A DNA stretch of 64,000 nucleotides from Mobula hypostoma. Its lineage: Eukaryota. The stretch's first letter is position 1. Each line of letters starts with the position of its first letter. A model generated the notes under the pieces. The model was given only the letters and a program-made list of their open reading frames with translations, was not told where the DNA came from and made no database searches. This document shows, in pieces, positions 3,384 through 60,825 of this stretch. The position numbers were made by a program, and so were the translations under genes. The stretch covers positions 100,814,001 to 100,878,000 of the forward strand of contig NC_086097.1 in assembly GCF_963921235.1 (NCBI RefSeq), in the 5' to 3' direction.

Positions 3384-4916
3384 CTGTATAAAAACCAAAA
3401 AATGTGTATGAAATCAAGTACTAATGTGCCTCCATCTTCACAATCTTCTTGGTCTTCAACCACTAGCCAGTCACTACTTTGGAAAATGTGAGTATGTGCT
3501 TTCACTATGTGAAGCTTATAAATTGGAAGAGTATGGGCCGGCAGTAGAGATGGATGTGAAAACACAAATTATCTCTGAGGATGGCATTACTTTTGATTGT
3601 TTCAGCTCTGCTTCTGGCTGAAGTCTCAATAACTATCATCCCAAGAACAATCATGATGATAAGGATGATAAGACATAGACAAAGCTGACTTCCTCCGGTC
3701 AGTTTCTGCATTTAGTTGTGTTGCAATTGAGAGATAAGTGTCAGGGAATGGTGACATCCCTACTTAAGTCAGTGTGAAAGAGATGAAGGCAAAAAAAAAT
3801 GCAGAGACACAAGAAAATGCAGATGCTGGAATTAGGAGTAAAAGTATTGGAGAAATTCAACAAGATAAGCAGCATCTGTGGTGGAAATGGCACATTCGAA
3901 ATTTTGGGTCATGACCCCTTGTACAAACAGGATGTTCTTCTCATGGGAGAATCCAGAAATGGACTACATTCTTCAAAATAAAGGGATACTCATTTCCTGA
4001 CTGAGATAAGGAAGATTTTTTTTTCTTTTACATATTTAATTGACATTGGAAATGGATCAAAGGTGGTGACGAATTAGAGTGGTGGAGGAAGATTGAAAAT
4101 CCGGCTGAGTGGTGCCACATCAACAGCCTCTCACTCAATCTCAGCAAAACCAAGGAGCTGATTATTGACTTCAGGAGGAGGAAACCAGATGCCCAGGAGT
4201 CAGACCTCATCGAGGGATGAGAGGTGGAGAGGGCCAGCAACTTTAAATTCCTCGGTGTTATCATCTCAGAGGATCGATTCTAGGTCCAGTACAAAGTGCC
4301 ATTACAAAGAAAGCATGGCAATGCCTCTACTTTCTCAGAAGTTTGCATAGATTTGGCATGTCATCTGAACCTTTTGACAATAGATGTGCAGTGGAGAGTA
4401 TATTGACTGGTTGCATCATGGTCTAGTATGGAAACACAAATGCCTGAAATGGAAAAACCTATAAAAACCTATAAAACCACTCCAGTCTATCATGGGTAAA
4501 GCCCTACCCACCATTGAGCACATCTACAAGGAGTGCTGTCACAGGGAAGCAGCATCATCAAGAACCCTCACCATCCAGGCCATGCTCTCTTCACATTGTC
4601 ACCATTAGGAAAATGGTCCAAGAGCCTCAGGACCCACATCACCAGGTTCAGGAACGATTATTAACCTTTGACCATCAGACTCTTGAACCAGAGGGGATAA
4701 CTTCACTCATCCCAACACAGAACTGAACACAATCTATGGACTCACTTTCAAGGACTCTTCACCTCATGTTCTTCATATTTATTGTTTGTTTATTTATTAA
4801 TTATGATTATTTATATTTTTCTTTCTTTTGTATTAGCAGTTTGTTGTCTTTTTCACAATGGCTGTTTGCTCATCTTGTATGCGGTCTTCCATTAATTCTA
4901 TTGCGATTCCTTGTAT

Positions 4917-5607
4917 TGTAAGGGGGTTTCAAGTTTTATGTTACTGCGAAGGCTAATTAAAATGGCGTCTTTGTTATGTTAATCTGGGGAATGCGGCTTT
5001 GTTGTGTTAAACGCTGAGCAAGTTTGCACAACGGTTTGTTTTTACTTTAGTGTGTGATAAGAGAGTGCTGTTAACCAATTGGGATAGTTGTTATGGTTTT
5101 GGTGTATTTGAAGATACTGTATGCGCGGGGTTTTGGGGCAGAAGGCGGGAGATCGAGACAGAGGATGGACGAGGTGCTGTGAGTCCGCTAACGGGGTCGG
5201 GCCCCGAGCGGGACATTCGGCGCGGAGACGGAGACGGACTGGTGTGGAGCGTCTGGTCGACCACCATTGGTGGTCCCAAGCAGCCGGTCGAGGTGGTCCG
5301 AGGGGGTCGCAGGGTGAAGAAGAAGGTCCTTGAGCTCCAACTGTTTGTGCACGAAGAGATTGAACTTTGATAAGTGTGGCGCCTTTTATTTTCCTTTTAT
5401 ATTTTATTCTCTTTTAATTATGTAGTTCCAGTTATATCTATAAACTGTAAATCATTTAATTGCATCTGGTGTATTGTCTGTTATTTGGGCGAGGTGGGGT
5501 ACCTCACACAGCATCCACACAAACAAGTTATCCAGTTTGGCGGGACCGAGGCTGTTTCCCTAGACGACAGCGAGCCGAGCAACCCTGAGAGTGGCCGGGG
5601 GGCTACA
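4917..5607 (+). repeat. 5' LTR
   Basis: TGTAAGGGG...GGCTACA; about 31 differences from the 3' LTR by manual count (~95-96% identity). Confidence 0.95.
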
Positions 5608-5610
5608 TTG

Positions 5611-5629
5611 TGGGGGCTTTGTCCGGGAT
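5611..5629 (+). promoter_or_regulatory. Primer-binding site, tRNA-Pro type
   Basis: TGGGGGCTTTGTCCGGGAT 3 nt after the LTR; canonical tRNA-Pro PBS is TGGGGGCTCGTCCGGGAT. Confidence 0.85.
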
Positions 5630-5859
5630 GCTTGAGTCTGTTGGTATGCTGTGTGGGTGCCCTGTTTAAATCTATAATGTGTGTCTCTGTGGGTTATTTG
5701 CTGTTGATTGCTGTATGCGTTGTGGGTGCGGTCTTTGTTCGAGTTCAGACTAGCATTGACGAGTTGGAGGTGGCACTCGGGGCCGTCCATGCGGTTGGGA
5801 GAGAGAGGAAAGAGTGGTCTGATTTGGAGGTCAAGTCTGCGAATAAATGTTCTAGCTCT

Positions 5860-6200
5860 GGCAGGCTCCGCCTGGCACTTGGGATAGTGTCCAACCCAAG
5901 AGGGGCGGAGGCGTGCGAGATGTGGGCGGAGCGGATCTCTCAGTTGTTAGATGAGTGGCAGTGCTCGGTTGAGGGAGAGCGACAGGGATTGGTTGAAATT
6001 TTGAGTAGGCGGGCTGGTGACGGTGTTAGAGCTGTCAGGTTCACTTACACCATAGTGACAGCTGTCAGTTATTTGAAAAAGGGGGGAAAGTTTTCAGTGT
6101 GTCTTCTCTGGCGAGGAGGGCGGCTAAATTGCTTGCAGGATCATTTCAGGGGATCAGTTGTTCAGCTGATCAGCGAGGTGTCGGGAAACTTAGTGGAGGC
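5860..6200 (+). pseudogene. PNMA-like Gypsy gag remnant
   Basis: [44 protein letters not shown] resembles the PNMA/Gypsy capsid signature (FSG..P.GEE.FE.W...L.EWQ.S..EK..RL.ESL). Confidence 0.75.
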
Positions 6201-6264
6201 CCAGTGGGGGAGCGGCCTGAGGTCTCTGGGGAAGCACACTCCCAGCAATGTACCAATGAACTTC

Positions 6265-7060
6265 TGAAAGGAAAAGACCCTATTCCTGAAGGCTTAGAGG
6301 GGCCACGCCCCAGGGTGTCGCTATGGATAGAGGGAAGCGATGCTAAAACTATCCTCAACCCACAGATCAAGTTGTTGTACAGTTCGTTTTACAACCGGTG
6401 TCTGAAGCATTTATCCTTGACAACCACAAGGGCACCGGAGACTTTGGGTACTAGTGGCAGTAGTTATCCAGAAGACGATGATTGGTTAATGACCCTGGAG
6501 TTCATGGAGGCATTTTCTGGGCACCCAGCGTGTCGAGTTGCTTCTGAGGACGTGTGTAGCAGGCTTGAGCCAGTACCGAATTTAAACGAGACCCAGCGGT
6601 GGTATGGCTTGGGGAAAGTAGCTGAGGGTGAGACCCTCTTAGTAGATGCTCCGAACTACCACGAGGGAGGGGAGTTGACCGCTGAAGACACCTCAGTGAG
6701 AGAGAGGTCGCAGCAACTGGACCCTGGCGGCGTGGAAGATGAAGGCAGCGTATGTGTGGATTATGTGATGTGGTTTAATGTGCTGCATCTGAGGAGTGGA
6801 TGTTGCCAGATCCTGAGGAGTGCGGCTGTTGAGCTGAAGATGGCCTTTACTCGTTCCCTAGGATTCTTCCGATCCGAAAAGACGCCCAAGGGCATATCCG
6901 GAGCCCCTGCATCCTTCCCGCGGGGCATGAGGAAGACCATGGGGGAAGTGAAGGTGTGTGGAGTTTTGACGTATGTGGATGACCGCCTAGAGCTTGGATT
7001 CGCCTGGGGGGACTATGAGGCGAGGCGAGTGGCTGAGCCCGGGCGACCGAAGCGAAGTGT
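6265..7060 (+). pseudogene. Gypsy pol remnant: degenerate protease and internally deleted RT
   Basis: IPEGLEGP..VSLWIEG...LLYSSFYNRCLKHL (protease region, DTG lost); CVDY..WFNVLHLRSGCCQI..KMAF..LGFF..PKGISGAPASF..VLTYVDD (RT). Confidence 0.85.
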
Positions 7061-7079
7061 CAAATGTGGAGGAGTTTTT

Positions 7080-7793
7080 GGCCGGAGGAGTTTGGTGCAA
7101 TGTGAGGAAAATGACCCGACATACCAGTTGAACTTCCTGGTGTTGGGACAGACGGTGGTGGACCGGGGGATGGAAACCCAGGTCGTCAATCTGAATGAGA
7201 CACAGGGAAGAGAGGGGATTTGCACCGCACTGCGGTCATGAACTGATGAATTAATCCAGCGAGAAGGAACGATGACCCACCTTCGAAGGGATCAGCAGAA
7301 ACTCAAGACGTCCATTCAAAACAGATTGTAAGATTTACTAGTTGGGGAAGATCAAGGAAGTGTTCCGACTAAGGTCAACAGAAAACCGAGAGCCCAGGGA
7401 GGGGAGTTTGACTACACTCCCAAGGAGGTGAAGAAATGGAGGACAGATCTCGGAAAAGGGAGGCGGACGCTTGAAAGGAACCTGAAGATGACTATCGCGA
7501 GTTTAAATGAAGTGGAAAAACTGAAAGTTGACCTGGAAGACGCCCTCAGGAAGAAACCGCCGGAGGCTGAACATTCTTTAACTGCTGCTTTTCAGGTCAG
7601 GGTGGAAGAAGCTGGTGGGGTAACTGCGTCCCAGATTGAGATGGCCAGGAACCCTGAGTCAGAACTGCGGAGGCTGTGGCGAGAGTTGAAGGAGTCCCTG
7701 AAGAAGCTGACGTCTCGACTGCAGGAGGCTGAAGGGGTAGCCCCGGCTAAATGTTTCAGTTTGGAGAAACTCAAACAGCAGCTACCAATCGAG
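7080..7793 (+). pseudogene. Captured myosin heavy-chain rod fragments (sarcomeric type, MYH16-like) inside the LTR element
   Basis: [68 protein letters not shown]...[13 protein letters not shown] match myosin II tail motifs (RLEEAGGATSAQIEM; KKLAQRLQEAE..AKCSSLEKTKQRL); two in-frame stops. Confidence 0.85.
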
Positions 7794-8284
7794 GGAATGA
7801 GGAAGGATACGGGTTCGAAGGATGATGTGCTGCACATGTGGTACATGCTGCCTTTCGCTAACTTCCCCGTGATTGAGGAAGAGACCTTTGGCCCTTCTCC
7901 CACCGAGTCAGGTGTAGTGGGGAGGGCTAGCTGTCGGCAGTCTGAGTTATGGCAGGATCAGGAAGGAGGAGAGGCGGGGCCCCGGACACGGGACTGGGAG
8001 CTCCGAGCTGTAGTGGTGGCCTGAGTGAGAGAGGAGTTGGCAAGCAGGCCCGAGGTATCCCTAGTAGTGTCTGAGCCTTTTGGGTTTAGGTGAGCGGGTA
8101 CGGAGGTCTCAGAGGGTTAAGAAGCTCCCAGATAGGTTGGCCTATGTAGCGCCTGTGGGACGGGAGTAAGGTCCACTGTTCGGGGAGCACTGTCACTGTG
8201 TGCATCTGTGTATGTGTGTGTTGTGTGTCTGCAGGACTGGTTGGCGAGTTACTTAGCAGTCATGAGGATATGACTTTATTTGGT

Positions 8285-8294
8285 GGGGGGAGAG
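8285..8294 (+). promoter_or_regulatory. Polypurine tract
   Basis: GGGGGGAGAG immediately before the 3' LTR. Confidence 0.85.
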
Positions 8295-8986
8295 TGTAAG
8301 GGGGTTTTGACTTTTATGTTACTGCGGAGGCTAATTAAAATGGCGTCTTTGTTATGTTAATCTGGGGAATGCGGCTTTGTTGTGTTAAACGCTGAGAAAG
8401 TTTGCGCTAACAGTTTGTTTTTGCTTTAGTGTGTGATAAGAGAGTGCTATTAACCAATTGGGATAGTTGTTATGGTTTTGGTGTATTTGAAGATACTGTA
8501 TGCGCGGCGTTTTGGGGCAGAAGGCGGGAGATCGAGACAGAGGATGGACGAGGTGCTGTGAGTCTGCTAACGGGGTCGGACCCCGAGCGGGACGTTCGGC
8601 GAGGAGACGGAGATGGACTGGTGTGGAGCGTCTGGTCGACCACCATTGGTAGTCCCAGGTGGCCGGTCGTGGTGGTCCGAGGGGGTGGCAGGGTGAAGAA
8701 GAAGGTCCTTGAGCTCCAACTGTTTGTGCACGAAGAGATTGAACTTTGATAAGTGTGGCGCCTTTTATTTTCCTTTTATATTTTATTCCCTTTTAATTAT
8801 ATAGTTCCAGTAATATCTATAAACTGTAAATCATCTAATTGCATCTGGTGTATTGTCTGTTATTTGGGCGGGGTGGGGTACCTCACACAGCATCCACACA
8901 AACAAGTTATCCAGTTTGGCAGGGCCAAGGCTGTTTCCCTAGACGACAGCGAGCCGAGCGACCCTGAGAGTGGCCGGGGGGCTACA
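8295..8986 (+). repeat. 3' LTR
   Basis: Direct repeat of 4917-5607, followed by the GTAT duplication. Confidence 0.95.
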
Positions 8987-9243
8987 GTATTTACTATGAT
9001 TGCCTGCAAGGAAATGAATCTTGGAGTTGTATATGGTGAGGTGTATATATATATATATATATACTCTGGTAATTGATTTACTTTGAACTTTGAAATCTTT
9101 GGAATTTCATGCCAAAGACAGGAAAGAGCACAGAGCCTTAGGTATAGTTAAGATTGATTTAGATGAATTTTTAAACAGTTAGAGAATTAATAGTATGGGG
9201 AAAGGGCAAAAACTGCATGAGAGATGTTGGATTAGCCATGATG

Positions 9244-9940: not shown

Positions 9941-10594
9941 CTACCGAACGGTGGAACATGTCTGAGGTGCTGATCACCTGACTCCTCTTCCCATTTCTTA
10001 TGACCATTTGCAATCCAGAGTATGGGTACAGAGGAACACTTAAAAAATATGAGTACTAAAGTACAAGGAGCATGAACTAAGAGTCAAAACGTGGTGTAAT
10101 TTGATGAATGTTGCACATGAAAATGCATTCATTGACCTTGACCACTTAAGTGAGGTCACTAAACTTCAAGGAGCTGCACCCACATCTTTAGGGCTAGATT
10201 TCTGGAAATAACCACTGTGGTCAATCCCAGGAGCCCCTGCAACTAAAGGACATTGCACCTATGTTACACCACCTATGTCAAGTCCTCCCATACAGCACTC
10301 AAAAAACTTTAACCCACTCTCTTGTTATATAATTTACTATTGCTTCGCAAGTCTGATGCATTGGTTCACCCATGACAGACTGGCACAATACACCCATCAT
10401 GTAACAGGGGTTATAGAACCAGGGGGCTGAAGAATGACCAGCATTCTAGTCAGTCATGATATTGGCCCATTGCTGATGCTAATTACCAAATGGTTAATAC
10501 TGTAGAATGCCGAATTTATTATCATGGTCAGGATGAATTTGACCTAACTGTCCACAGTGAATAGGGATGAACTAATTGAACATCATAATCCCCA

Positions 10595-10969
10595 AACACG
10601 AGGAATTCTGCAGATGCTGGAAATTCAAGCACCACACATCAAAGTTGCTGGTGAACGCAGCAGGCCAGGCAGCATCTGTAGGAAGAGGTACAGTCAACGT
10701 TTCGGGCTGAGAACCTTTGTCAGATCTAACTGAAGGAAGTGCTAGTAAGATATTTTAAAGTGGGAGGGGGAGGGGGAGATCCAAAATGATAGGAGAAGAC
10801 CCCCTCCTGTCTTCTCCTATCATTTTGGATCTCCCCCTCCCCCTCCCACTTTCAAATCTCTTACTAGCTCTTCCTTCAGTTAGTCCTGACGAAGGGTCTC
10901 GGCCCGAAACGTCGACTGAACCCCTTCCTAGAGATGCTGCCTGGTCTGCTGCGTTCACCGGCAACTTTG
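10595..10969. mobile_element. Penelope-like element terminus in inverted (hairpin) arrangement
   Basis: Arms 10638-10800 and 10809-10971; 13-bp TSD ATCATAATCCCCA (10582-10594, 10970-10982); same terminus family as the GIY-YIG-bearing copy at 54.1-54.8 kb. Confidence 0.85.
10881..10918 (+). ncRNA. Minimal type I hammerhead ribozyme motif
   Basis: TAGTC-CTGACGA-A-GGGT(CTCG)GCCC-GAAA-C-GTC-GACTG: intact core, stems I and II, palindromic ACGT stem III. Confidence 0.75.
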
Positions 10970-11051
10970 ATCATAATCCCCATGTCTTTTTGTGATCACG
11001 TTCCCACATAACCACCAATTGGTCAAAGCAAATGTACTGGAAAGTTTCATT

Positions 11052-14713: not shown

Positions 14714-17713
14714 TCAGAACCCAGCCTTCCCTCCATACCCCCTGACCCCTGTAGCCACAAGGGCCATATCTAACTTCCTTTTAAACATAGCTAATGAACT
14801 GGCCTCAACAGTTTGCTGTGGCAGAGAATTCCACAGATTCACCACTCTCTGTGTGAAGAAGTTTTTCCTAACCTCGGTCCTAAAAGGCTTCCCCTCTATC
14901 CTCAAACTGTGACCCCTCGTTCTAGACCTCCCCAACATCGGAAACAATCTTCCCGCATCTAGCCTGTCCAATCCCTTTAGGATCTTATACGTTTCAATCA
15001 GATCCCCCCTCAATCTTCTAAATTCCAACGAGTACAAGCCCAGTTCATCCAGTCTTTCTTCATATGAAAGACCTGCCATCCCAGGAATCAATCTGGTGAA
15101 CCTTCTTTGTACTCCCTCTATGGCAAAGATGTCTTTCCTCAGATTAGGGGACCAAAACTGCACACAATACTCCAGGTGTGGTCTCACCAAGGCCTTGTAC
15201 AACTGCAGTAGTACCTCCCTGCTCCTGTACTCGAATCCTCTCGCTATAAATGCCAGCATACCGTTCGCCTTTTTCACCGCCTGCTGTACCTGCATGCCCA
15301 CTTTCAATGACTGGTGTATAATGACACCCAGGTCTCGTTGCACCTCCCCTTTTCCTAATCGGCCACCATTCAGATAATAATCTGTTTTCCTATTTTTGCC
15401 ACCAAAGTGGATAACTTCACATTTATCCACATTAAATTGCATCTGCCATGAGTTTGCCCACTCACCCAACCTATCCAAGTCACCCTGCATCCTCTTAGTA
15501 TCCTCCTCACTGCTAACACTGCCACCCAGCTTTGTGTCATCCGCAAACTTGGAGATGCTGCATTTAATTCCCTCATCCAAGTCATTAATATATATTGTAA
15601 ACAACTGAGGTCCCAGCACTGAGCCTTGCGGTACCCCACTAGTCACCGCCTGCCATTCTGAAAAGGTCCCGTTTATTCCCACTCTTTGCTTCCTGTCTGC
15701 TAACCAATTCTCCACCCACACCAATACCTTACCCCCAATACCGTGTGCTTTAAGTTTGCACACTAATCTCCTGTGTGGGACCTTGTCAAAAGCCTTTTGA
15801 AAATCCAAATATACCACATCCACTGGTTCTCCCCTATCCACTCTACTAGTTACATCCTCAAAAAATTCTATGAGATTCGTCAGACATGATTTTCCTTTCA
15901 CAAATCCATGCTGACTTTGTCCGATCATTTCACCGCTTTCCAAATGTGCTGTTATCACATCCTTGATAACTGACTCCAGCAGTTTCCCCACCACCGACGT
16001 TAGGCTAACCGGCCTATAATTCCCCGGTTTCTCTCTCTCTCCTTTTTTAAAAAGTGGGGTTACATTAGCCACCCTCCAATCCTCAGGAACTAGTCCAGAA
16101 TCTAACGAGTTTTGAAAAATTATTACTAATGCATCCACTATTTCTTGGGCCACTTCCTTAAGCACTCTGGGATGCAGACCATCTGGCCCCGGGGATTTAT
16201 CTGCCTTCAATCCCTTCAATTTACCTAACACCACTTCCCTACTAACATGTATTTCGCTCAGTTCCTCCATCTCACTGGACCCTCTGTCCCTTACTATTTC
16301 TGGAAGATTATTTATGTCCTCCTTAGTGAAGACAGAACCAAAGTAATTATTCAATTGGTCTGCCATGTCCTTGCTCCCCATAATCAATTCACCTGTTTCT
16401 GTTTGCAGGGGACCTACATTTGTCTTTATCAGTCTTTTCCTTTTTACATATCTATAAAAGCTTTTACAGTCCGTTTTTATGTTCTCTGCCAGTTTTCTCT
16501 CATAATCTTTTTTCCCCTTCCTAATTAAGCCCTTTGTCCTCCTCTGCTGAACTCTGAATTTCTCCCAGTCCTCAGGTGAGCCACTTTCTCTGGCTAATTT
16601 GTATGCTACTTCTTTGGAATTGATACTATCCCTAATTTCTCTTGTCAGCCACGGGTGCACTACCTTCCTTGATTTATTCTTTTGCCAAACTGGGATGAAC
16701 AATTGTTGTAGTTCATCCATGCAACCTTTAAATGCCTGCCATTGCATATCCACCGTCAATCCTTGAAGTGTCATTTGCCAGTCTATCTTAGCTAATTCAC
16801 GTCTCATACCTTCAAAGTTACCCCTCTTTAAGTTCAGAACCTTTGTTTCTGAATTAACTACGTCACTCTCCATGTTAATGAAGAATTCCACCATATTATG
16901 GTCACTCTTACCCAAGGGGCCTCTCACAACAAGATCGCTAATTAACCCTTCCTCATTGCTCAAAACCCAGTCCAGAATAGCCTGCTCTCTAGTCGGTTCC
17001 TCGACATGTTGGTTCAAAAAACCATCCCGCATACATTCCAAGAAATCCTCTTCCTCAGCACCTTTACCAATTTGGTTCACCCAGTCTACATGTAGATTGA
17101 AGTCACCCATTATAACTGCTGTTCCTTTATTGCACACATTTCTAATTTCCTGTTTAATACCATCTCCGACCTCACTACTACTGTTAGGTGGCCTGTACAC
17201 AACTCCCACCAGCGTCTTCTGCCCCTTAGTGTTACGCAGCTCTACCCATATCGATTCCACATCTTCCCGGCTTATGTCCTTCCTTTCTATTGCGTTAATC
17301 TCTTTTTTAACCAGCAACGCCACCCCACCTCCCCTTCCTTCATGTCTATCCCTCCTGAATATTGAATATCCCTGAACGTTGAGCTCCCATCCCTGGTCAC
17401 CCTGGAGCCATGTCTCTGTGATCCCAACTATATCATAATCATTAATAACAATCTGCACTTTCAATTCATCCACCTTATTACGAATGCTCCTTGCATTGAC
17501 ACATAAAGCCTTCAGGCGCTCTTTTACAACTCTCTTAGCCCTTTTTAATGCTTGCCCTGGATTTGTCGGCCTGCCACTTTTACTTTTCCCCTTTGTACTT
17601 TTTGCTTCTACGCTCACTTTACACCCCTCTGTCTCTCTGCACTGGTTCCCATCCCTCTGTTGTGAACTAACCTCCTCAAACCTAGCCGCTTTAATTTGAT
17701 TCCCACCCCCCAA
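14714..17713 (-). CDS. CR1 ORF2: APE endonuclease plus reverse transcriptase, uninterrupted 999 codons (first codon called by the track is TTG)
   Basis: NARSI, GITETWL, YRPP, GDFN, SDH (EN); SPGPDG, YRPVSLTS, LDFQKAFD, GVPQGSVLGP, FADD (RT). Confidence 0.95.
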   Translation of the reverse strand: MGGGNQIKAARFEEVSSQQRDGNQCRETEGCKVSVEAKSTKGKSKSGRPTNPGQALKRAKRVVKERLKALCVNARSIRNKVDELKVQIVINDYDIVGITETWLQGDQGWELNVQGYSIFRRDRHEGRGGGVALLVKKEINAIERKDISREDVESIWVELRNTKGQKTLVGVVYRPPNSSSEVGDGIKQEIRNVCNKGTAVIMGDFNLHVDWVNQIGKGAEEEDFLECMRDGFLNQHVEEPTREQAILDWVLSNEEGLISDLVVRGPLGKSDHNMVEFFINMESDVVNSETKVLNLKRGNFEGMRRELAKIDWQMTLQGLTVDMQWQAFKGCMDELQQLFIPVWQKNKSRKVVHPWLTREIRDSINSKEVAYKLARESGSPEDWEKFRVQQRRTKGLIRKGKKDYERKLAENIKTDCKSFYRYVKRKRLIKTNVGPLQTETGELIMGSKDMADQLNNYFGSVFTKEDINNLPEIVRDRGSSEMEELSEIHVSREVVLGKLKGLKADKSPGPDGLHPRVLKEVAQEIVDALVIIFQNSLDSGLVPEDWRVANVTPLFKKGEREKPGNYRPVSLTSVVGKLLESVIKDVITAHLESGEMIGQSQHGFVKGKSCLTNLIEFFEDVTSRVDRGEPVDVVYLDFQKAFDKVPHRRLVCKLKAHGIGGKVLVWVENWLADRKQRVGINGTFSEWQAVTSGVPQGSVLGPQLFTIYINDLDEGIKCSISKFADDTKLGGSVSSEEDTKRMQGDLDRLGEWANSWQMQFNVDKCEVIHFGGKNRKTDYYLNGGRLGKGEVQRDLGVIIHQSLKVGMQVQQAVKKANGMLAFIARGFEYRSREVLLQLYKALVRPHLEYCVQFWSPNLRKDIFAIEGVQRRFTRLIPGMAGLSYEERLDELGLYSLEFRRLRGDLIETYKILKGLDRLDAGRLFPMLGRSRTRGHSLRIEGKPFRTEVRKNFFTQRVVNLWNSLPQQTVEASSLAMFKRKLDMALVATGVRGYGGKAGF

Positions 17714-17718
17714 CCATT

Positions 17719-17900
17719 CTAGTTTAAAGTCACCTCAGTAGCCCCCGCTAATCTCCCTGCCAGGATATTGGTCCCCCTAGGATTTAAGTGTAACCCGTCC
17801 TTTTTGTACAGGTCACACCTGCGCCAAAAGAGGTCCCAATGATCCAAAAACTTGAATCCCTGCCCCCTGCTCCAATCCCTCAGCCACGCATTTATCCTCC
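17719..17900 (-). CDS. CR1 ORF1 C-terminal fragment (SGNH/GDSL esterase-like)
   Basis: RINAWLRDWSRGQGFKFLDHWDLFWRRCDLYKKDGLHLNPRGTNILAGRLAGATEVTLN*; DxxH motif. Confidence 0.88.
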
Positions 17901-18404: not shown

Positions 18405-21400
18405 TACTCTCAGTGGCCAGTTTATTAGGTGACCTTTACACCTGCTCATTAATGCAAGTATCTAATCAGCCAATCAAGAGGCAGCAACTCCATACATAAA
18501 AGCATACAGACATAGTCAAGTGGTTCAGTTGTTCAGATCAAACATCAGAATGGGGAAGAAATGTGATCCAAGTGATTTTAACCGTGGAATGATTGTTGGT
18601 GCCAGACGGGGTGGTTTGAGTATCTCAGAAACTGCTGATCTCCTATGGTTTTTATGCACAATATCTAGAGCAAAGATGATCAGACTAGCAACCTGGTAAA
18701 CTAGACAACATCAAACAAGAAATGGAAAGGTTAAAGATCAACATCTTGGGAATGTGCGAGATGAGGTGGAAAAGAGCTGGTAAAACAAGCTCAGAGGGAT
18801 ATACCACCATTTACTCAGGAGGAGAAACACATGAAAAAGGTGTTGGAATTATGTTAGATGAAGAACATGCAAAATCAATAAAGGGCTATTGGACAATATA
18901 AGATCCAATGTTACTTGTGAAACTACATGCAAAACCTTTTGACATTAACATTGTTCAAGTTTATGCCCCAACAGCAGACAGCAGTGAAGAAAGCATCGAT
19001 CAATTTTATGACAAACTAGAAACAGCATTAAGTAAAAGCTCAGAAAATACCATTATTCAAGGTGACTTCAATGCAAGAGTAGGCAAGACCAGGGACGAGG
19101 ACAATATTGGGCATTATGGCATAGGTGAGAGAAATGAGAGAGGTGAACGACTAGCTACATGGGTGACAGAAAAAGATTATATAATTGGTAATACCATCTT
19201 CAGGCAACACCCGAGAAAACTATAGACATGGAAGAGCCCAGGGGATAACACCAGAAACCAGATTGATTACGTGCTTATAAGGAGAAGGTATAGAAATGCT
19301 CTGAAATCATGCAAAACATATCCGGGTGCAGACTGCTACAGTGATCACGTACCAATAATCAGCGTGATGTACCTGAGATGCAGAATGCTTAAAAGACCAA
19401 GAGTAGTGCCAAAGCTGAATTTGGGACTTTGGAGAAAAAACAGTGACATCAAAAATGAATTCCAAATAACTGTGAAGAACAAATTCGAGGCTCTACAAAA
19501 CATCACTATTATTTAACAGCAATGGGAAAACCTCAGATAACATAACACAAGCAGCACAAGAGGTGATTCCCAAACAACAGAAAAAAGCTGAAAAGAAATG
19601 GATGACAGAAGAAATTCTGAATCTTAAGGAACAAAGAAGAAAATGTAAGGAAAATGAAAAAACCTACGTATCCTTGCATGCACAGATAACAACCAAGTGC
19701 AAGGAAGCAAAAGAAAAGTGGCTTAAGGACAAATGTGAGTTAATAGAACAATTGCAGAAGACCAACAACAGCAAACGTATGCACGGTGAGACAAAAAAGG
19801 TCATAAATTGGAAGAAAAGTGGGGCAACAACAGGATGTATAAAAGCAAAAGACGGCTCTACAACTATGGAAAAAGGAAAAATAATGCAAAGATGGTCAGA
19901 ATACATCAAGGACCTATACGACGACAAAGACCAAGAGGACAACTTTGATATTGGCAACAACAACAAGGGCCCAGCAATACTGAAAGAAGAAGTGAAATAT
20001 GCTATAAAGAAAATGTGAAAGGGGAAATCATCAGGACCAGATAACATTCTGGTTGAACTGTATGAAGTGCTAGAAGATTTTGGTGTAGAGAAATTAACAA
20101 TCTTATTGAATAGAATATACAACGGTGGCAAAGTATCAGAAGATCTTTTAAAGACAATATGCATTGCACTGCCAAAGAAACCAGGTGCAACAGAGTGTGG
20201 ACAACACAGAACAATTAGTTTAATGAGCCACCTCACAAAAATTCTACTTAGAAACATCATGCTCAGAATAAGAAACAAAATTAAACCAGAGATCAGTGAA
20301 GAACAATGCGGCTTTGTCGAAGGCAAGGGAACATCAAACGCCACTTATATTCTCAAAGGTCAATAGAAGTACAAGACCTATACTTCTGTTTCATTGACTA
20401 CACAAAAGCCTTTGACACAGGGAAACACCAAGTCATCGTGAAAATGCTTAAAGACATTAATATCGACGGAAAAGATCTAAGAATAATCAGGATTCTCTAC
20501 TGGCAACAAAGTGCAGCCATACAGATAGACAACAAGATTGGTGAATATCAGCCAATAAAGCGAGGAGTCAGACAGGGTTGTATTCTATCACCAGACCTGT
20601 TCTCCCTGTATTCATGAGAACCATACAAGACCAACCTGGAATAAGTATAGGAGGATATAATATCAACAACCTCCGCTATGCAGATGATACAGTACTGATA
20701 GCAAACAGTGAAGTAAATTTACAGAAACTAGTATCTACCATCAACTCAGAAAACAAAAGACTTGGCCTAACCTTAAACAAAAAGAAAACTGAAGTAATGG
20801 TAATATCAAAGAAACCTGATATCCCAAGCTGTAGGATCGTATTGGGAAATGAAATCCTGAAACAAGTTCACAACTTCAAGTACCTTGGATCGTGGGTAAC
20901 ATCTGATGGCAAATGCGAAACAGATATAAAAGCAAGAATAGCAATGGCAAGAACAACATTTACAGAAATGAGAAACATCCTAACAAACAAGAAAATAGCA
21001 ATTGACATCTGTCTTAGAACTCTTAGCTGCTACATTCTTCCTATATTGATGTATGGCTGCGAGTCATGGACCATCACAAATGCAATGAAAAGAAGAATCA
21101 TGCAGCAGAGATGTGGTTCCTCAGAAAAATGCTATGCATATCATATAAGGGCAGGATAACCAATGAAGAAGTTCTACAGAGAACGAAAACAAAACGTACA
21201 TTACTTTAAAAAAAAAATCAGAAAACAGCAATCAAAATTCTTTGGACACATCATGAGAAGAGAGACATCAGAACATTTAGTTACAAGCTGGAAGGGAAAA
21301 GAAGCAGAGGCAGACAGAGAATGAAAGTGATAGATGGAATAACAGCATGGTTAGAAACAAGGGAGGCAACAACTACAATTCGGAGGGTCAGGGACCGTGA

Positions 21401-35130: not shown

Positions 35131-37506
35131 AAATCTAAGGGTAGCTGATCAATTGTTGGATTATGGGAGAAACAGATGATGACCTAAAGACTACTATTCC
35201 GTATTTCAGAATCCAAAATGTTCACATTAATAAATCTGTAAGGATAAAGAAATGTGCAAATGCTGATGAGCAAATGATAGAGATTGAGTTAAAAGGTAAC
35301 CATAAATGCTATACTGCAATGACTTATTTTAAAATAATATTTACTTGGTGCTGGTGGCTATCCAAAAAAATACAAATGGAACCAAATTCGCATGAGACCA
35401 AGCATGTAGCTTGAAGTGGTCAGACCTATTAACTACTTTGGAGGCAGGACCAGAATTCTGCAGAGCTATTCTTACATTCTGATATGAAACAAAAGCTGGA
35501 AGCATTGTTTAAAGTGAAGCTATGGAACAGACAACTTCCTGGCAGTCGTACTGGGGACCTGCACTTCGGAACCAAGCCAATTCCAGTTTAGTTCCAACAC
35601 TGGTATCTACACACCAAAATGGAAAATTGTACAGCTACTAAGTTCAGAAAAAGAGGAACAATATAAACCAGGTAATCACACTCCAGTTGGTATACTCTCA
35701 ATCATGTGCAAAGTGACAGAGAGTGCCACTAACGGTATTATCAAGAGACACTTACTGCTACTAACATACCCACCAAAGCCCATTTTGGAATTCATTAGGA
35801 TCACAAGGCTGCAGATCTGATCACAGCCTTGGTCTGACCATGTTCTTGCCCAGGGTCTAGTGCCTCCTTCTGAGGTTGACAAAGGCACAGGAAGCCAAGT
35901 GATATGATACTGGTCTACTCAAAAAGGGAAGCGTATTTCAGAAATGCTGAGAAACTCAGTCCAAGAAAATGTAACCTTTAAAGTGTCAAAGCCTTTTACA
36001 GATCAAGGTAAAAATTAATTCACACAACTCCAAAACCAAAATGGTTTTGATGTTTCACAGTGGAGCAATTTTACACAGCTTCCCAGGTCCACAAGTGTCT
36101 ATTTGGGAATATGTCTTCTTATTCTTTGCAACATTTACATTTTTTCACCATTATCAATATCAACAGGAGTAGAATATTCATCTGCAGAGAAATTTTCAAG
36201 TAAAACAATTGCACTTACGTATTCATCAAGTAACCAACATCTACTTTGCCCATTTCCCCTGAATGATGCTACTTAAAGAGCCAGTATTCAAACTGCCCAT
36301 CTATTCCAACTGTGATTCTTGACCTTAAATGCAACGTGCAAATGTGCCTTCACTGCTTCACTCACAGAAGTAATTCTCAGTTTCTTATCCTCACATCATG
36401 CCAGACTACAATTGACCTGTGTCACATCTCATGATCATCTGCTCACTGCTGTATCAGGCAGGACACTCAAACTCCAGTATTTCCTCAGTCCACTGGAGTT
36501 GGCCATATGCACACAGGCATTTTTCTCTACTGTGAAAACATCTGCAGACTGGACTCTTGTCATTACAGAAACCTCCTCGAAAACATCTTACCTAGCTGGA
36601 ACTGTGGTGGCTTCCAAGGTCTTCTTGCACAGAGAACATGTACCTGCATGCCTCCCTGGGAGTACTCCTGCACACACCTACAAATCATTTACTTAGTTCA
36701 TAGATGCTTGCTGCAGACCTTAAAGGAATTTATCAAATATGTGGCATAAACATCCCAAATTCATATGGACATTAAGCACCCAACAGCTGTGCAGCCATAA
36801 TGTTTGATGAGTGCACAAATGAAAGCACAATCTTTTTGAAGAAATTGCTCTGACTTTACTAAGGATGGTAGCAGTAGTGCATTTTATCTGCTTTAAGAAA
36901 CACAATTACTGAATAAATTGACTTTGTCAAGTGGTATATATCCTATCTCAGCACAATTCAACTGCAATACTGGCATTAAATGTTCGGGGAGATAAAAGGA
37001 CTATTACCTATGTTCTGGCAATGTCTATTTGGACAGAAGGTTGGGTAGAGCGAGATAAAAGTAGTTTGACCTGTACCAACCTACAGAACATAGGAGGCTC
37101 TGCCTCAAGGTGGCAACATCCATCAAAGATCCCGCCATTTGGGCCATGCCATCTTCTTGCACCTGTCAGCAGGCAGGAGGTACCGAAGTCTCACAACACC
37201 AGGTACAAAAACAGCTACTCCCCTTCAACCATTCAGCTTTTGAAGAAACCTGCACAACCCTAAACATTACAGTTCAGTAACACTATTACAGCCTTGATCA
37301 CTTTGCACTAAAACTGACTTTCTTCCCACAAACTATGGACTCACTTTCAAGGACTCTTCATCTCATGTTGTTGATATCTTTTGCTTATTTCTTTAGTAGT
37401 ATTAATTCATTTTTTTCTTTCTTTTCACATTTGCAGTTTGTTTTATTTTGCACTCTGGTTATCTGCCTGTTGGTGCGCTCTTTCACTGATTGATTCCTTT
37501 ATGGTT

Positions 37507-39336
37507 AAGGAAAAGACTGATAAAGACAAATGTAGGTCCCCTGCAAACAGAAACAGGTGAATTGATTATGGGGAGCAAGGACATGGCAGACCAATTGAAT
37601 AATTACTTTGGTTCTGTCTTCACTAAGGAGGACATAAATAATCTTCCAGAAATAGTAAGGGACAGAGGGTCCAGTGAGATGGAGGAACTGAGCGAAATAC
37701 ATGTTAGTAGGGAAGTGGTGTTAGGTAAATTGAAGGGATTGAAGGCAGATAAATCCCCAGGGCCAGATGGTCTGCATCCCAGAGTGCTTAAGGAAGTGGC
37801 CCAAGAAATAGTGGATGCATTAGTGATAATTTTTCAAAACTCGTTAGATTCTGGACTAGTTCCTGAGGATTGGAGGGTGGCTAATGTAACCCCACTTTTT
37901 AAAAAAGGAGGGAGAGAGAAACCGGGGAATTATAGGCCGGTTAGCCTAACGTTGGTGGTGGGGAAACTGCTGGAGTCAGTTATCAAGGATGTGATAACAG
38001 CACATTTGGAAAGCGGTGAAATGATCGGACAAAGTCAGCATGGATTTGTGAAAGGAAAATCATGTCTGACGAATCTCATAGAATTTTTTGAGGATGTAAC
38101 TAGTAGAGTGGATAGGGGAGAACCAGTGGATGTGGTATATTTGGATTTTCAAAAGGCTTTTGACAAGGTCCCACACAGGAGATTAGTGTGCAAACTTAAA
38201 GCACATGGTATTGGGGGTAAGGTATTGGTGTGGGTGGAGAATTGGTTAGCAGACAGGAAGCAAAGTGTGGGAATAAACGGGACCTTTTCAGAATGGCAGG
38301 CGGTGACTAGTGGGGTACCGCAAGGCTCAGTGCTGGGACCCCAGTTGTTTACAATATATATTAATGACTTGGATGAGGGAATTAAATGCAGCATCTCCAA
38401 GTTTGCGGATGACACGAAGCTGGGTGGCAGTGTTAGCAGTGAGGAGGATGCTAAGAGGATGCAGGGTGACTTGGATAGGTTGGGTGAGTGGGCAAACTCA
38501 TGGCAGATGCAATTTAATGTGGATAAATGTGAAGTTATCCACTTTGGTGGCAAAAATAGGAAAACAGATTATTATCTGAATGGTGGCCGATTAGGAAAAG
38601 GGGAGGTGCAACGAGACCTGGGTGTCATTATACACCAGTCATTGAAAGTGGGCATGCAGGTACAGCAGGCGGTGAAAAAGGCGAACGGTATGCTGGCATT
38701 TATAGCGAGAGGATTCGAGTACAGGAGCAGGGAGGTACTACTGCAGTTGTACAAGGCCTTGGTGAGACCACACCTGGAGTATTGTGTGCAGTTTTGGTCC
38801 CCTAATCTGAGGAAAGACATCCTTGCCATAGAGGGAGTACAAAGAAGGTTCACCAGATTGATTCCTGGGATGGCAGGTCTTTCATATGAAGAAAGACTGG
38901 ATGAACTGGGCTTGTACTCGTTGGAATTTAGAAGATTGAGGGGGGATCTGATTGAAACGTATAAGATCCTAAAGGGATTGGACAGGCTAGATGCGGGAAG
39001 ATTGTTCCCGATGTTGGGGAGGTCTAGAACGAGGGGTCACAGTTTGAGGATAGAGGGGAAGCCTTTTAGGACCGAGGTTAGGAAAAACTTCTTCACACAG
39101 AGAGTGGTGAATCTGTGGAATTCTCTGCCACAGCAAACTGTTGAGGCCAGTTCATTAGCTATGTTTAAAAGGAAGTTAGATATGGCCCTTGTGGCTACAG
39201 GGGTCACGGGGTATGGAGGGAAGGCTGGGTTCTGAGTTGGATGATCAGCCATGATCATAATAAATGGCGGTGCAGGCTCGAAGGGCCGAATGGCCTACTC
39301 CTGCACCTATTTTCTATGTTTCTATGTTTCTATGTT
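37507..39336 (+). mobile_element. Young 5'-truncated CR1 (RT only), near-identical to 14614-16442, inserted in a Rex-type tail
   Basis: ORF 37490-39235 differs from the 999-aa ORF at only about 6 residues over ~575; same 3' UTR and (TTTCTATG)3 tail. Confidence 0.97.
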
Positions 39337-48400: not shown

Positions 48401-51400
48401 TTTCTATTGGTTGGCCTTCTTTCTTTGGGAGGTGGGCGGGGGTATGTTTTTTTTTTCTCAGAAGCTGTTTTCGAATTTTTAACCAACTTGTTGCTTGGTT
48501 ACCATTTCTCAAGGTTTATGGGTTGGTTTTAACTTACATTTTAACCCTTCCTTTAAATAATATTAAAAATGGACCAAACTATTAACTTACTCAGTTTTAA
48601 CGTGAAAGGGTTAAGTCACCCTGTTAAACGTAATAAGATTTTTGCTTATATTAATAAATTTAAAGACCCTATTATTTTCTTACAAGAAACTCACATAGGC
48701 AAATGTGATAATTTACGTTCTTTTAGCCGTTGGAATGGACTTTGTTTTCATTCTTCTTTTCAGGCCAAATCTAGAGGAGTTTCGATTCTTATAGATAATA
48801 CACTTTCCTTTGTCCAACATAAAGTAGCGTCGGATACCAATGGATGTTTTGTTATAGTTTCAGGAAAAGTAGATAATAAATTAATAGTATTTGCCAATGT
48901 GTATGCCCCAAATGTAGATGATCCAGGATTCTTTGAGCGTTTCTTTTTTCGTTTTTACCAGATTTGAGTCTCTATTCTCTGGTGATGGGAGGAGATTTTA
49001 ACTATTGGCTAAACCCAATGTTAGATCGATCATCTTCTAAACCAGTGTCCCTTAATAAATCAGCTTTGTTTATTCAATCTTTTTTTATTCAAGTGTGGTA
49101 TTGTTGATGTTTGGCGTTTTTTACATCCTTTAGATAGGGAGTAGTCATTTTTTTCCTATGTCCATCGTACATGTTCCAGGATTGATTTTTTTTATCGATA
49201 GTCAAATGATTTCATCAGTTCATTCCTGTGTATATAAAGAGATTGCTGTTTCAGATCCTGCCCCTGTATTTCTATCTTTAAATCTCCCTGGTCTTCCTCA
49301 AACAAACAGATTTTAGCATTTTAATACAACTTTGTTATCTGGTAAGGAATTTTTAAAATTTCTAGAGAGGCATATTATTCTGTTTTTTGAATAGAATAAA
49401 AAGGAACAGACTTCTAATCTTACTGTATGGGATACTTTCAAGGCCTGTATTAGAGGACAAATTATTTCTTACACTGCGAGTGTTAAGAATAAAGCTAATA
49501 AAGAAAGAACTGAATTAGCCAATCAATTGAAACAATTAGATCAAAAATATGCTGTAGCTCCAGATCCTGTTTTATATAAAAGACGTGTCGAAGTTAAAAC
49601 TAAATATGATCTTCTGTTAACATATCCAATTGAAACTGAACTTCTTAAAGATAAAACTCAATTTTACATTCATGGAGATAAATCAGGCAAAGTATTGGCC
49701 AACCAATTAAAAACTTCTGTAGTTAAATGACAAATTAAAGAAATTTGTAAAACTAATGGTGATAGGACAACTGATCACTCTGAAATAAATGATACCTTTA
49801 GAGAATTCTATTCTAAACTTTATAGTTCTGATTTCCCTAAAGATAGTACTGTGGTGAATAATTTCTTGATCAATTAAATATCCCTGCACTTTCTGCAGAT
49901 AATTGCAAACCGATGGATCAACCCATTTCTTATGAGGAAATTGCCGAGGCTATATGTTCATTACACTCGGGGAAGGCTCCGGGTCCAGATGGATTTTCTG
50001 GAGAATTTTATAAGGCTTTTTCCTCATTAATTATATCGCAGTTACACTTAGTCTTTCTGGATTCTTTCAAATTGGATAGCTTGCCTCAATCTTTCTATGA
50101 AGCTTTTATTTTGCTTATCCTCGAAAAAGAACAAGGACCCAACTGAATGCTCTACATATAGACCAATTTCATACTCAATGTTGATACTAAAATCCTTTCT
50201 AAAGTTCTGGCTCGTAGGATTGAAAATATTTTACCTTCTATTATCTCTGATGATCAGACTGGATTTATTAAAAACTGACATTCGCATTTTAATATACGCC
50301 GTGTATTAAATATTATTTACTCTCCTTCTCAGGAGATATCAGAATGTGTGATATCCTTAGATGCTGAGAAGGCCTTCGATCGGGTTGAATGGAATTATTT
50401 ATTTAAAACCTTAGAAAAATTTAATTTTGGACCAGATTTTATTCCATGGATTAAATTACTTTATTTATCTCCTTCTGCTCGGGTTCTTACTAATTTTCAA
50501 AATTCCAAACCATTTAAACTTCACCGCGGAACTAGACAAGGCTGTCAGTGGAGTTCTTTGCTCTTTGATCTAGCTTTAAAACCCCTAGCCATTGCTTTTC
50601 GAGAATCTAATGATATCCGTGGTATTTTAAGGCGAGGTATTACTCACAAAATCTCTCTTTACGCTGATGATATATTGTTTTTTATCTCTAATGTTGAGAC
50701 CTTGTTACCTTGCATACTTTCTTTACTCTCCAGTTTCAGCCAGTTTTCAGGATATAAATTGATCCTACATAAGAGTGAATTATTTCCTTCAAATAATTTG
50801 GTATCAATTAATACTAATCTCCCTTTTAAAATTGTTAGGAATCAATTTACTTATTTGGGTGAAAGAGTCACTAAGAATTACAAACACCTGTTTAAAGAAA
50901 ACTTTCTTACTTTATTGAACCATGTAAAAAGGATATCATTAAATTGGTCAACTTTTTCAATATCATTGATTGGACAAATTAATTCTATTAAAATGAATAT
51001 TCTACCTAAATTTATATATCTTTTTCAGGCTTTACCCGTTTTTATTCCTAAATCCTTTTTTTGACTCTCTTGATCCTATTTTGTCCTCTTATATGTGGAA
51101 AAATAAACGTCCTTGATTAAATAAAGTTCATCTCCAAATATCTAAAAAGTCTGGAGGTTCAGCCTTACCCAATTTTAAGTTTTATTACTGGGCAGTTAAT
51201 ATACAATATCTTACGTTTTGGCTGTATTATATTAATCGTGTACACTGTCCGGTATGGGTTTCTTTAGAAACTAACTCTGTTAATAAATTATCTATTATTT
51301 CTCTTCTTGGATTCTCACTTCCTTTATCTGTAAGTAAACTAACTGATAATTTAATAGTTAACCATACTCTGAGGATTTGGATACAATTTAGAAACATTGA

Positions 51401-59159: not shown

Positions 59160-60825
59160 GCAAACATAGAAAACTTAAAAAACCTACAGCACAATACAGG
59201 GCCTTCGGCCCACAAATCTGTGCCGAACATGTCCCTACCTTAGAAATTACTAGGGTTACCCATAGCCCTCTATTTTTCTAAGCTCCATGTACCTATCCAA
59301 GAGTCTCTTACAAGATCCTATCGTATCCACTTCCACCACCATCGCCGGCAGCCCATTCCCTGCACTCACCACTCTTTGCGTAAAAAACTTACCCCTCACA
59401 TCTCCTCTGTACCTACTTCCAAGCACCTTAAAACTGTGCCCTCTTGTGCTAGCCATTTCGGTCCTTGGAAAAAGCCTCCCACACGATCAATGCCTCTCAT
59501 CATCTTATACACCTGTATCAGGTCACCTCTCATCCTCTGTCTCTCCAAGGAGAAAAGGTCAAGTTCACTCAACCTATTCTCGTAAGGCATGCTCCCCAAT
59601 CCAGACAACATCCTTATAAATCTCCTCTGCACCCTTTCTATGGTTTCTACATCCTTCCTGTAATGAGGCGACCAGAACTGAGCACAGTACTCCAAGTGGG
59701 GTCTGACCAGGGACGATTGATGAAGACCAATGCACCATATGCCTTCTTAACCACACAGTCAGCTTGTGCAGCAGCTTTGAGTGTCCTAAGGACTCGGACT
59801 CCAAGATCCCTCTGATCCTCCACACTACCAAGACTCTTACCATTAATACTATATTCTTCTAGCATATTTGACCTACCAAAATGAACCGCTTCACACTTAT
59901 CTGGGTTGAACTCCATCTGCCACTTCTCAGCCCAGTTTTGCATCTTATCAATGTCCCGCTGTAACCTCTGACAGCCCTCCACACCATCCATAACACCCCC
60001 AACCTTTGTGTTATCAGCAAATTTACTAACCCATCCTTCTACTCCCTCATCCAGGTCATTTATAAGAATCATGAAAAGTAGGGGTCACAGAACAGATCCC
60101 TGAGGCACACCACTGGTGACCGACCATGCAGAATATGACCCGTCTACAACCACTCTTTACCTTCTGTGGGCAAGCCAGATCTGGATCCACAAAGCAATGT
60201 CCCCTTGGATCCCATGCCTCCTTACTTTCTCAATAAGCCTTGCATGGGGTACCTTATCAAATGCCTTGCTGAAATCTATATACACTACATCTACTGCTCT
60301 ACCTTCATCAATGTGTTTAGTCACATCCTCAAAAAATTCAATCAGGCTCGTAAGGCACGACCTGCCTTTCAGAAAGCCATGCTGACTATCCCTAATCATA
60401 TTATACCTCTCCAATTGTTCATATATCCTGCCTCTCAGGATCTTCTCCATCAACTTACCAACTACTGAAGTAAGACTCTCTGGCCTATAATTTCCTGGGC
60501 TATCTCTACTCCCTTTCTTGAATAAGGAAACAACATCCGCAACCCTCCAATCTTCCGGAACCTCTCCCGTCCCCATTGATGATGCAAAGATCATCGTCAG
60601 AGGCTCAGCAATCTCCTCTCTCGCCTCCCACAGTAGCCTGGGGTACATCTCATCCAGTCCTGGTGACTTGATGCTTTCCAAAAGCTCCAGCACATCCTCT
60701 TTCTTAATATCTACATGCTCAAGATTTTCAGTCCGCTGTACATCACCCCTACAATCGCCAAGATCCTTTTCCATAGTGAATACTGAAGCAAAGTACTCAT
60801 TAAGTACCTCTGCTATCTCCTCCGG
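59160..60825 (-). mobile_element. CR1 LINE, 5'-truncated, with several lesions
   Basis: VPEDWRVA, SQHGFLKGRSCLT, DFSKAFDKVPH, KFADN; same tail family as 1253-1742 and 11052-11885. Confidence 0.93.

Follow-up and report, generated by a model that had tools for sequence, protein, structure and literature searches.

A myosin heavy-chain rod fragment carried by a non-autonomous Ty3/Gypsy retrotransposon family in the ray Mobula hypostoma

Introduction

How does a stretch of myosin-like sequence come to lie inside the pol frame of a retrotransposon? The question is raised by a locus of Mobula hypostoma, within the 64,000-nucleotide stretch of DNA analyzed here (the window), where an earlier reading made from the letters alone (hereafter, the sequence-only reading) noticed that a Gypsy-type frame passes from reverse transcriptase (RT) into myosin II tail motifs and then returns to Gypsy-type sequence. 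The evidence presented below makes it highly probable that a defective Gypsy element captured a spliced MYH16-like mRNA and was amplified in trans. LTR retroelements are known to transduce host mRNA; the present case adds an example that is well resolved, comes from an unusual host and involves a high copy number.

Structure of the element

Positions 4917-8986 of the window are one copy of a 4.07-kb non-autonomous Ty3/Gypsy LTR element with an interior of only 2.7 kb. The element lies between the two copies of a perfect 4-bp target-site duplication, GTAT (4913-4916 and 8987-8990), and is bounded by direct LTRs with TG...CA ends, on the plus strand: a 5' LTR of 691 nt (4917-5607) and a 3' LTR of 692 nt (8295-8986), which are 95.5% identical over 692 columns (blastn; K2P distance 0.045 from 30 differences). 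The 5' LTR is adjoined by a primer-binding-site-like stretch, read from the sequence (5608-5630, plus strand), which may resemble a tRNA-Pro primer-binding site, and the G-rich polypurine tract GGTGGGGGGAGAG (8281-8294, plus strand) is located directly 5' of the 3' LTR, so that the tract and LTR which the sequence-only reading had placed after the Pol tail are both present. A search of the window with Rfam at gathering thresholds returned 0 matches.

The coding remnants were mapped by tblastn onto a stingray Gag-Pol protein (P0141; 1,566 residues, with Pfam domains for PNMA-type Gag, zinc knuckle, RVT_1, RNase H and integrase). All are on the plus strand and keep the order Gag, protease region, RT, RNase H. 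The PNMA-like Gag remnant (5863-6039; P0141 residues 155-217, E = 9e-6) is in a frame other than that of Pol and matches Pfam PNMA at E = 5e-4, under the cut-off. It is followed by a Pol remnant from between the zinc knuckle and RT, that is, the protease region (6156-6521; residues 444-569, 41% identity, E = 2e-16), by a partial RT (6732-7046; residues 892-995, 46% identity, E = 3e-20) with the YVDD motif at 6972-6983, and by a 30-residue RNase H fragment (7077-7166; residues 1167-1196, 50% identity, E = 0.001), the 3' end of which is a secondary deletion junction into myosin. The sequence-only reading had seen neither RNase H nor an integrase core; the former is thus detectable after all, and for the latter the reading stands, given that no integrase was found in the window copy by Pfam searches or by tblastn with P0141. 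Beyond the myosin-like region, a weak match to the C-terminal tail of Pol remains (7795-8270; blastx E = 0.002-0.1), with all blastx matches falling on the extreme C-termini of related Gypsy Pol proteins; the same region is also present in a relative that carries no myosin (L063, see below). The earlier claim of a return to Gypsy-type sequence holds with respect to RRSQRVKKLPDRL, which does occur near 8100, but not with respect to the frame, which differs. An apparent TRIM72/PRY-SPRY identity of positions 7815-8020 proved spurious: TRIM72 chains in the PDB matched at E = 0.05-0.9 only, with no Pfam match. It is likewise unsupported in a fuller relative of the element (L054), and the stretch aligns weakly with Pol C-termini and occurs in myosin-less elements.

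A single frame, composed of the segments 6030-7241, 7245-7328 and 7332-8024, is broken only by TGA at 7239-7241 and TAA at 7329-7331, the two stops that the sequence-only reading had bridged, and includes, in this order, the protease, RT and RNase H remnants, about 210 codons of myosin II rod (7157-7794) and the Pol C-terminal tail. The peptide strings quoted in that reading are present in the sequence, among them EEAGG (7605-7619) and KQQLPIE (7773-7793). A separate 297-codon open frame (5374-6267, plus strand) extends from inside the 5' LTR through the primer-binding site into the Gag remnant and overlaps the Pol-frame ORF by 238 nt, in a layout reminiscent of a gag-pol frameshift.

The window RT lacks the N-terminal half that is found in L054, a relative with a 666-codon open frame, and the window ORF matches Pfam RVT_1 at only E = 0.23. 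For L054, the RVT_1 match is over the cut-off (39.4 bits) and the best solved-structure match is the Ty3 RT (4ol8, E = 1.7e-19); the nearest long proteins carry Gypsy-type Pol names. Together with the E = 3e-20 match between the window RT and P0141 and the colinearity of the Pol remnants with the stingray protein, this places the RT in the Ty3 type and bears out the original assignment to Gypsy. A gamma-retrovirus-like identity, prompted by the tRNA-Pro-like primer-binding site, was rejected because the RT is of the Ty3 type. This copy, whose RT has lost the N-terminal half, whose RNase H is down to 30 residues and which is devoid of integrase, has none of the enzymes (protease, RT, RNase H and integrase) in working form and cannot move alone.

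Myosin origin of the cargo

The 213-residue read-through translation of the cargo region (with X at both stops) aligned to the rod of the MYH16-like protein P0021 with a Smith-Waterman score of 230, compared to 70 for the reversed rod and 58.6 ± 8.3 for 300 shuffles (maximum 82; z = 20.5), well above the background of generic coiled coils. In a tblastn search of the window, P0021 matched with residues 969-1160 (E = 7e-18) and 1379-1416 (E = 4e-4), in native order, as had been proposed for the myosin II tail motifs. The less-deleted members of the family that the sequence-only reading suggested looking for do exist: L059 and L045 are, respectively, 48% and 45% identical to residues 888-1109 of P0021 (E = 7e-48 and 2e-45). 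The proposed affinity to MYH16 also finds support; when the least decayed related protein, a Narcine 'myosin-6-like' model (P0015), was used as the query, the best full-length matches, from chimaera, teleosts and lamprey, were named myosin-16-like. A PDB sequence search with the 230-residue ORF gave matches that are suggestive only (MYH7 residues 1361-1425, E = 0.007; residues 1008-1122, E = 0.07).

The Pfam profile that had been nominated as a check, Myosin_tail_1 (PF01576), did not match the window ORFs or the X-read-through, which hit only weak generic coiled-coil families. It is the top Pfam match of L059 (E = 3.6e-7, 28.9 bits) and L045 (E = 5.3e-6, 25 bits), in both cases under the curated cut-off of 38.1 bits. 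The cargo region is a decayed myosin-derived fragment, not a myosin.

The source is an intron-bearing MYH16-like gene (G000:C68, plus strand), of which four exons, all flanked by canonical AG/GT splice sites, were compared: the exon at rod residue ~886 (C68:14524969-14525196, 228 nt), exon A (C68:14612358-14612503, 146 nt), exon B (C68:14615500-14615590, 91 nt) and the exon at rod residue ~1385 (C68:14707345-14707477, 133 nt). The nucleotide identities to these exons are 90%, 96.6%, 92.9% and 95%, respectively, for L059, and 76%, 82.6%, 85% and 77% for the window copy, where the cargo can be divided into five blocks, all on the plus strand. Block 1 (7157-7228) corresponds to nt 51-122 of the ~886 exon; block 2 (7229-7565), assigned by tblastn with P0021 to rod residues ~969-1076, contains both stops and matches exon A at 7409-7540; block 3 (7562-7595) corresponds to nt 37-70 of exon B and follows an in-frame deletion across the A/B join; block 4 (7596-7699), the EEAGG..IEM.. 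region at rod residues ~1165-1200, resembles myosin at the protein level only; and block 5 (7700-7794) corresponds to nt 1-104 of the ~1385 exon and ends at the 3' capture junction.

The four exons span 182 kb in the gene and adjoin one another in L059, with the matches ending at exon borders. Exons A and B are 2,996 nt apart, and the distances to the outer exons are about 87 and 92 kb; with introns of such size, a 30-kb stretch surrounding exons A and B yielded no additional exon. Given that exons separated in the gene by introns of 3 kb to ~90 kb abut in the element, colinear and with the intervening introns absent, the cargo comes from a spliced mRNA of this gene or of its immediate ancestor, the origin that the sequence-only reading had postulated.

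These findings bear on the only reading that involves no capture at all, namely, that the region is a native coiled coil of the retroelement, myosin-like by virtue of composition and heptad periodicity. The weak generic coiled-coil families that are the sole Pfam matches of the window copy would be compatible with such an origin, but a native coiled coil would not show 77-97% nucleotide identity to four host myosin exons, or a score three times that of the reversed rod and 20.5 standard deviations over shuffles, nor would a relative precisely lacking the insert be expected. On this evidence from sequence comparison, we consider the native coiled coil refuted.

Other myosin-related loci were observed in the same genome, among them paralogues of the source gene at C40:17.1 Mb and C2:160.9 Mb. 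At G000:C68:15.30-15.90 Mb, there are at least 7 repeats of a MYH16-like unit so compact that its motor and rod exons fit into about 5 kb, at a spacing of about 75 kb; the units show 62-72% identity to a chimaera myosin-16-like protein and some contain stops, and the locus represents a tandem array of myosin genes or else a duplicated pseudogene. What looks like a processed myosin pseudogene, without relation to the element family, is located at G000:C18:48745523-48746731 (minus strand), where Myosin_tail_1 matches contiguously over profile positions 514-920 and six stops interrupt the match.

Capture junctions and the route of capture

Both capture junctions are defined by the insert-free relative, L063 (G000:C9:59968800-59972299), in which RNase H runs directly into the same Pol tail. 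The 5' crossover took place within GGAG[T/C]GGGAGAG, a stretch in which pol (GGAGTGGGAGAG) and the start of the exon (GGAGCGGGAGAG, with the preceding AG included) agree in 12 of 13 nt. The 3' crossover occurred in CGAGG (window 7790-7794), 5 nt common to both, and is located mid-exon, 36 nt before the exon end, as read against the gene, L059 and L063. Both joins are in frame, and the insert took the place of only about 57 nt of pol. The window copy does not retain the original 5' junction, a later deletion having joined RNase H to nt 51 of the first captured exon (7157-7162); hence the RT-myosin junction to which the sequence-only reading drew attention is a secondary deletion rather than the site of capture.

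The following scenario appears most likely. The ancestor of the family would have already lacked integrase before the capture, when it gained about 1.6 kb of spliced MYH16-like mRNA (rod residues ~886-1418), in sense orientation and in frame, between RNase H and the Pol tail. The most likely route consists of two template switches by RT, at short homologies, onto a co-packaged myosin mRNA, the same logic as in oncogene capture by retroviruses. The chimera would then have been copied by enzymes supplied in trans; it multiplied to roughly a thousand copies, with subfamilies split by different in-frame internal deletions, and the window copy belongs to a young, heavily deleted subfamily and later gained its two private or near-private stops. 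The myosin piece is most likely a passenger without a host role, although the frame staying open over 25% divergence and the lower pN/pS of the myosin part in the young subfamily (see below) speak against passenger status. In the original proposal of mRNA capture by template switching, the spliced mRNA is confirmed by the exon structure; the template switching itself is suggested by the microhomology at both junctions.

Template switching does not predict that the 5' junction should fall on the first nucleotides of an exon, as it does; this might be due to chance or to a splicing step. A splicing step is the essence of the classical oncogene model, in which the element would have resided in the intron upstream of the ~886 exon, a cryptic donor in pol would have been spliced to the exon acceptor in a read-through transcript, and a single later template switch would have restored the 3' end of the element. 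The 5' junction, within 2 nt of the exon acceptor site, fits this sequence of events, and so does the 3' junction, mid-exon with a 5-nt microhomology, as expected of a single template switch. Nevertheless, we rank read-through and splicing below template switching and consider it unlikely because the only nearby GT in L063 gives a product 2 nt too long; furthermore, the 12 of 13 nt common to pol and the exon start already explain a crossover at that place, and the coincidence with the exon start has, by a rough estimate, a chance of about 1/8. The microhomology at the two junctions would be accounted for equally well if a fragment of a processed myosin cDNA or pseudogene had been end-joined into a chromosomal copy of the element which then became the master, and contiguous stretches resembling myosin retrocopies do exist elsewhere in the genome (C18:48745523). 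Such an origin at the DNA level seems improbable, however, given that it calls for a double-strand break exactly inside a transcribed, packageable element and for an insert that happened to be in sense orientation and in frame at both ends while replacing only about 57 nt. In addition, the loci that surfaced in the genome searches included no free-standing retrocopy with matching ends.

Copy number, deletion series and autonomous relatives

A genome search with positions 7000-8290 of the window, which span both junctions, yielded 2,033 candidates; all 40 of these that were scored matched end to end, at 95-98% identity and with the same junctions, on many contigs, in accord with the mobile, high-copy family predicted by the sequence-only reading. 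The myosin-specific query P0015 produced 1,155 candidates, and each of the 150 that were scored was significant, one being the true exon; other myosin-specific queries gave 774 and 443 candidates. The number of myosin-bearing candidates in the genome is about 1,000.

The subfamilies retain different parts of an insert that once spanned residues ~886-1418, in line with the repeated deletions envisaged earlier. L059 retains residues 886-1132 and 1395-1418; L053 and the window copy retain parts of 900-1076, the 1165-1200 block and 1385-1418; and L054 starts later, after a different RNase H-to-myosin deletion. The measurable deletions are multiples of three (102, 120 and 27 nt), including a 102-nt in-frame deletion in the window copy relative to L053, at 7228/7229. 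Compared to L059, the window copy is missing 268 nt between the matches at 7088-7162 and 7157-7226.

A protein search identified many autonomous Gypsy elements in the genome, with open frames of up to 2,780 codons. In RNase H, the myosin-bearing family is only 65.5% identical to P0141, whereas the autonomous elements found are 70-81% identical, a difference that counts against the favored scenario. The myosin-less L063 also lacks integrase, and its RNase H region gives 6,254 genome candidates; a cargo-free non-autonomous lineage may be more abundant than the myosin-bearing one.

Maintenance of the open frame

The two stops of the window copy are late additions. Among 30 copies aligned to the window (94.8-97.2% identical), the TGA at 7239-7241 is found in one, that is, it is private, and the TAA at 7329-7331 in three; stops occur in 28 of 665 codon columns, none common to more than 6 copies, and this lack of a widely shared stop indicates that the subfamily founder had an open frame. 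Over a longer distance, L053 (724 codons) and L054 (666 codons) are both open while 25.2% diverged; about 21.6 stop-creating changes would be expected between them, and the probability of none is about 4e-10. L053 and L054 were chosen for their long open frames, which biases only their private decay.

The amino acid sequence appears to be hardly constrained, given that pN/pS between subfamilies (0.70-1.0) is indistinguishable from the frame-shifted baseline; for L053 versus L054, the value is 0.70 (CI 0.58-0.82), against a baseline of 0.66-0.78. Within the young subfamily, the myosin part has a pN/pS of 0.44 (CI 0.30-0.63) versus 0.69 and 0.71 in the shifted frames, with overlapping confidence intervals; the upstream part, at 0.73, shows no such difference. 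As a lead and not a result, these sequences suggest that selection acts to keep the frame open and not to preserve a given protein.

It is possible, although not the reading that we favor, that the chimeric frame is functional for the element, in the sense that propagating lineages must stay translatable, be it through avoidance of RNA decay or through a cis-acting protein. The openness of L053 and L054 despite their divergence, the lack of a stop common to more than 6 of the 30 copies, the frame-preserving deletions that separate the subfamilies and the lower pN/pS of the myosin part within the young subfamily would all be consistent with such a function. The between-subfamily pN/pS equal to the frame-shifted baseline, the selection of L053 and L054 for long frames and the overlapping intervals of the within-subfamily signal argue against it. 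As a tentative and somewhat doubtful conjecture, lineages might be selected to keep a chimeric frame of 650-720 codons open while the amino acids drift almost freely, if retrotransposition in trans needs an RNA that is translatable near its 3' end; the myosin rod would then have been tolerated as a long, stop-poor filler in the right frame. If so, escape from nonsense-mediated decay or cis-acting loading would be candidate reasons for the need to remain translatable. In any event, the myosin-bearing family lends itself to asking if the spread of non-autonomous retroelements requires that a frame stay open.

Related sequences in other rays

The 230-residue ORF matches only 19 proteins in a library of 1.84 billion protein representatives at E ≤ 0.001, and all but a few of these are short. 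Among the 10 that were looked up, nine look element-derived and the tenth is the real Narcine myosin, P0015. The nine models come from Mobula birostris, M. hypostoma, Hypanus sabinus and Hemitrygon akajei, and several bear myosin names: 'myosin-16-like', 'putative uncharacterized protein MYH16' and 'myosin heavy chain, striated muscle-like / cardiac muscle isoform-like'. The expectation that the family would seed spurious myosin-like gene models is thereby borne out in several rays. Such mislabelled copies inflate the number of myosin genes counted and may lead comparative work astray. In the models from Hypanus and Hemitrygon, the 3' junction and the internal deletions are those of subfamilies found in the M. 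hypostoma genome; the capture is therefore older than the split of these ray lineages, unless the element passed from one lineage to another.

Comparison with known cases of transduction

Acutely transforming retroviruses carry captured cellular genes (v-onc transduction). As in these viruses, a spliced host mRNA has replaced part of pol, in sense orientation and as an in-frame fusion, with short homologies at the junctions, and the product is replication-defective and needs helper enzymes. In contrast to v-onc genes, the captured sequence, a fragment of a structural coiled coil, offers no obvious growth advantage; it travels in an endogenous Ty3/Gypsy retrotransposon of a cartilaginous fish, and the chimera is a germ-line family of about a thousand copies that is represented in several ray genera. 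With processed pseudogenes and other LINE-mediated retrocopies, the cargo shares the origin as an intronless copy of a host mRNA; unlike these, it is located inside an LTR element, has neither a poly(A) tail of its own nor a LINE-type target duplication, and was amplified together with that element.

Captured gene fragments are known from LTR retrotransposons of plants, for example, Bs1 of maize. The myosin-bearing family resembles the Bs1 type in being a non-autonomous LTR element with intronless host pieces between gag and pol remnants that was amplified as a family; it differs from the plant cases in that the host is a vertebrate and there is a single cargo, with the source gene identified and both junctions resolved. 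Gene capture in plants is the subject of a review (PMC13317346), and maize retroelements have been surveyed (PMC2774510). Like large retrotransposon derivatives (LARD) and TRIM elements, the myosin-bearing family keeps the LTRs, primer-binding site and polypurine tract, has lost its coding capacity and would be mobilized in trans. The interiors of LARD and TRIM elements are typically non-coding, whereas the myosin-bearing family has a long open frame made of Pol scraps and host sequence. Such non-autonomous LTR elements are covered in PMC4717578.

Among the passages returned by a full-text literature search, we found no myosin-carrying retrotransposon, no gene capture by a ray transposon and no example of host gene capture by a vertebrate Gypsy element. 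As a record of transduction by a vertebrate LTR retrotransposon, the present one is unusually complete, comprising the source, the intron loss, the junctions, an insert-free relative and the deletions in one genome.

Other repeats in the window

The window is repeat-rich, and no host genes were recognized among its ORFs of at least 170 codons. An open LINE-type ORF2 of 1,006 codons, which resembles endonuclease and RT in sequence, occupies 14714-17734 (minus strand), and a near-identical 581-codon 3' part is located 20 kb away on the opposite strand (37490-39235, plus strand); the pair looks like a young non-LTR family. More RT-like open frames, from other LINE-type elements, are found at 19476-21159, 50279-51064 and 60157-60906. 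Finally, a short and probably SINE-like repeat, KLPVNAA(D/G)QAASLGRG..SGRDPSSG, occurs twice at 10548-10995, in opposite orientations, and is also inserted in L059 between RT and RNase H.
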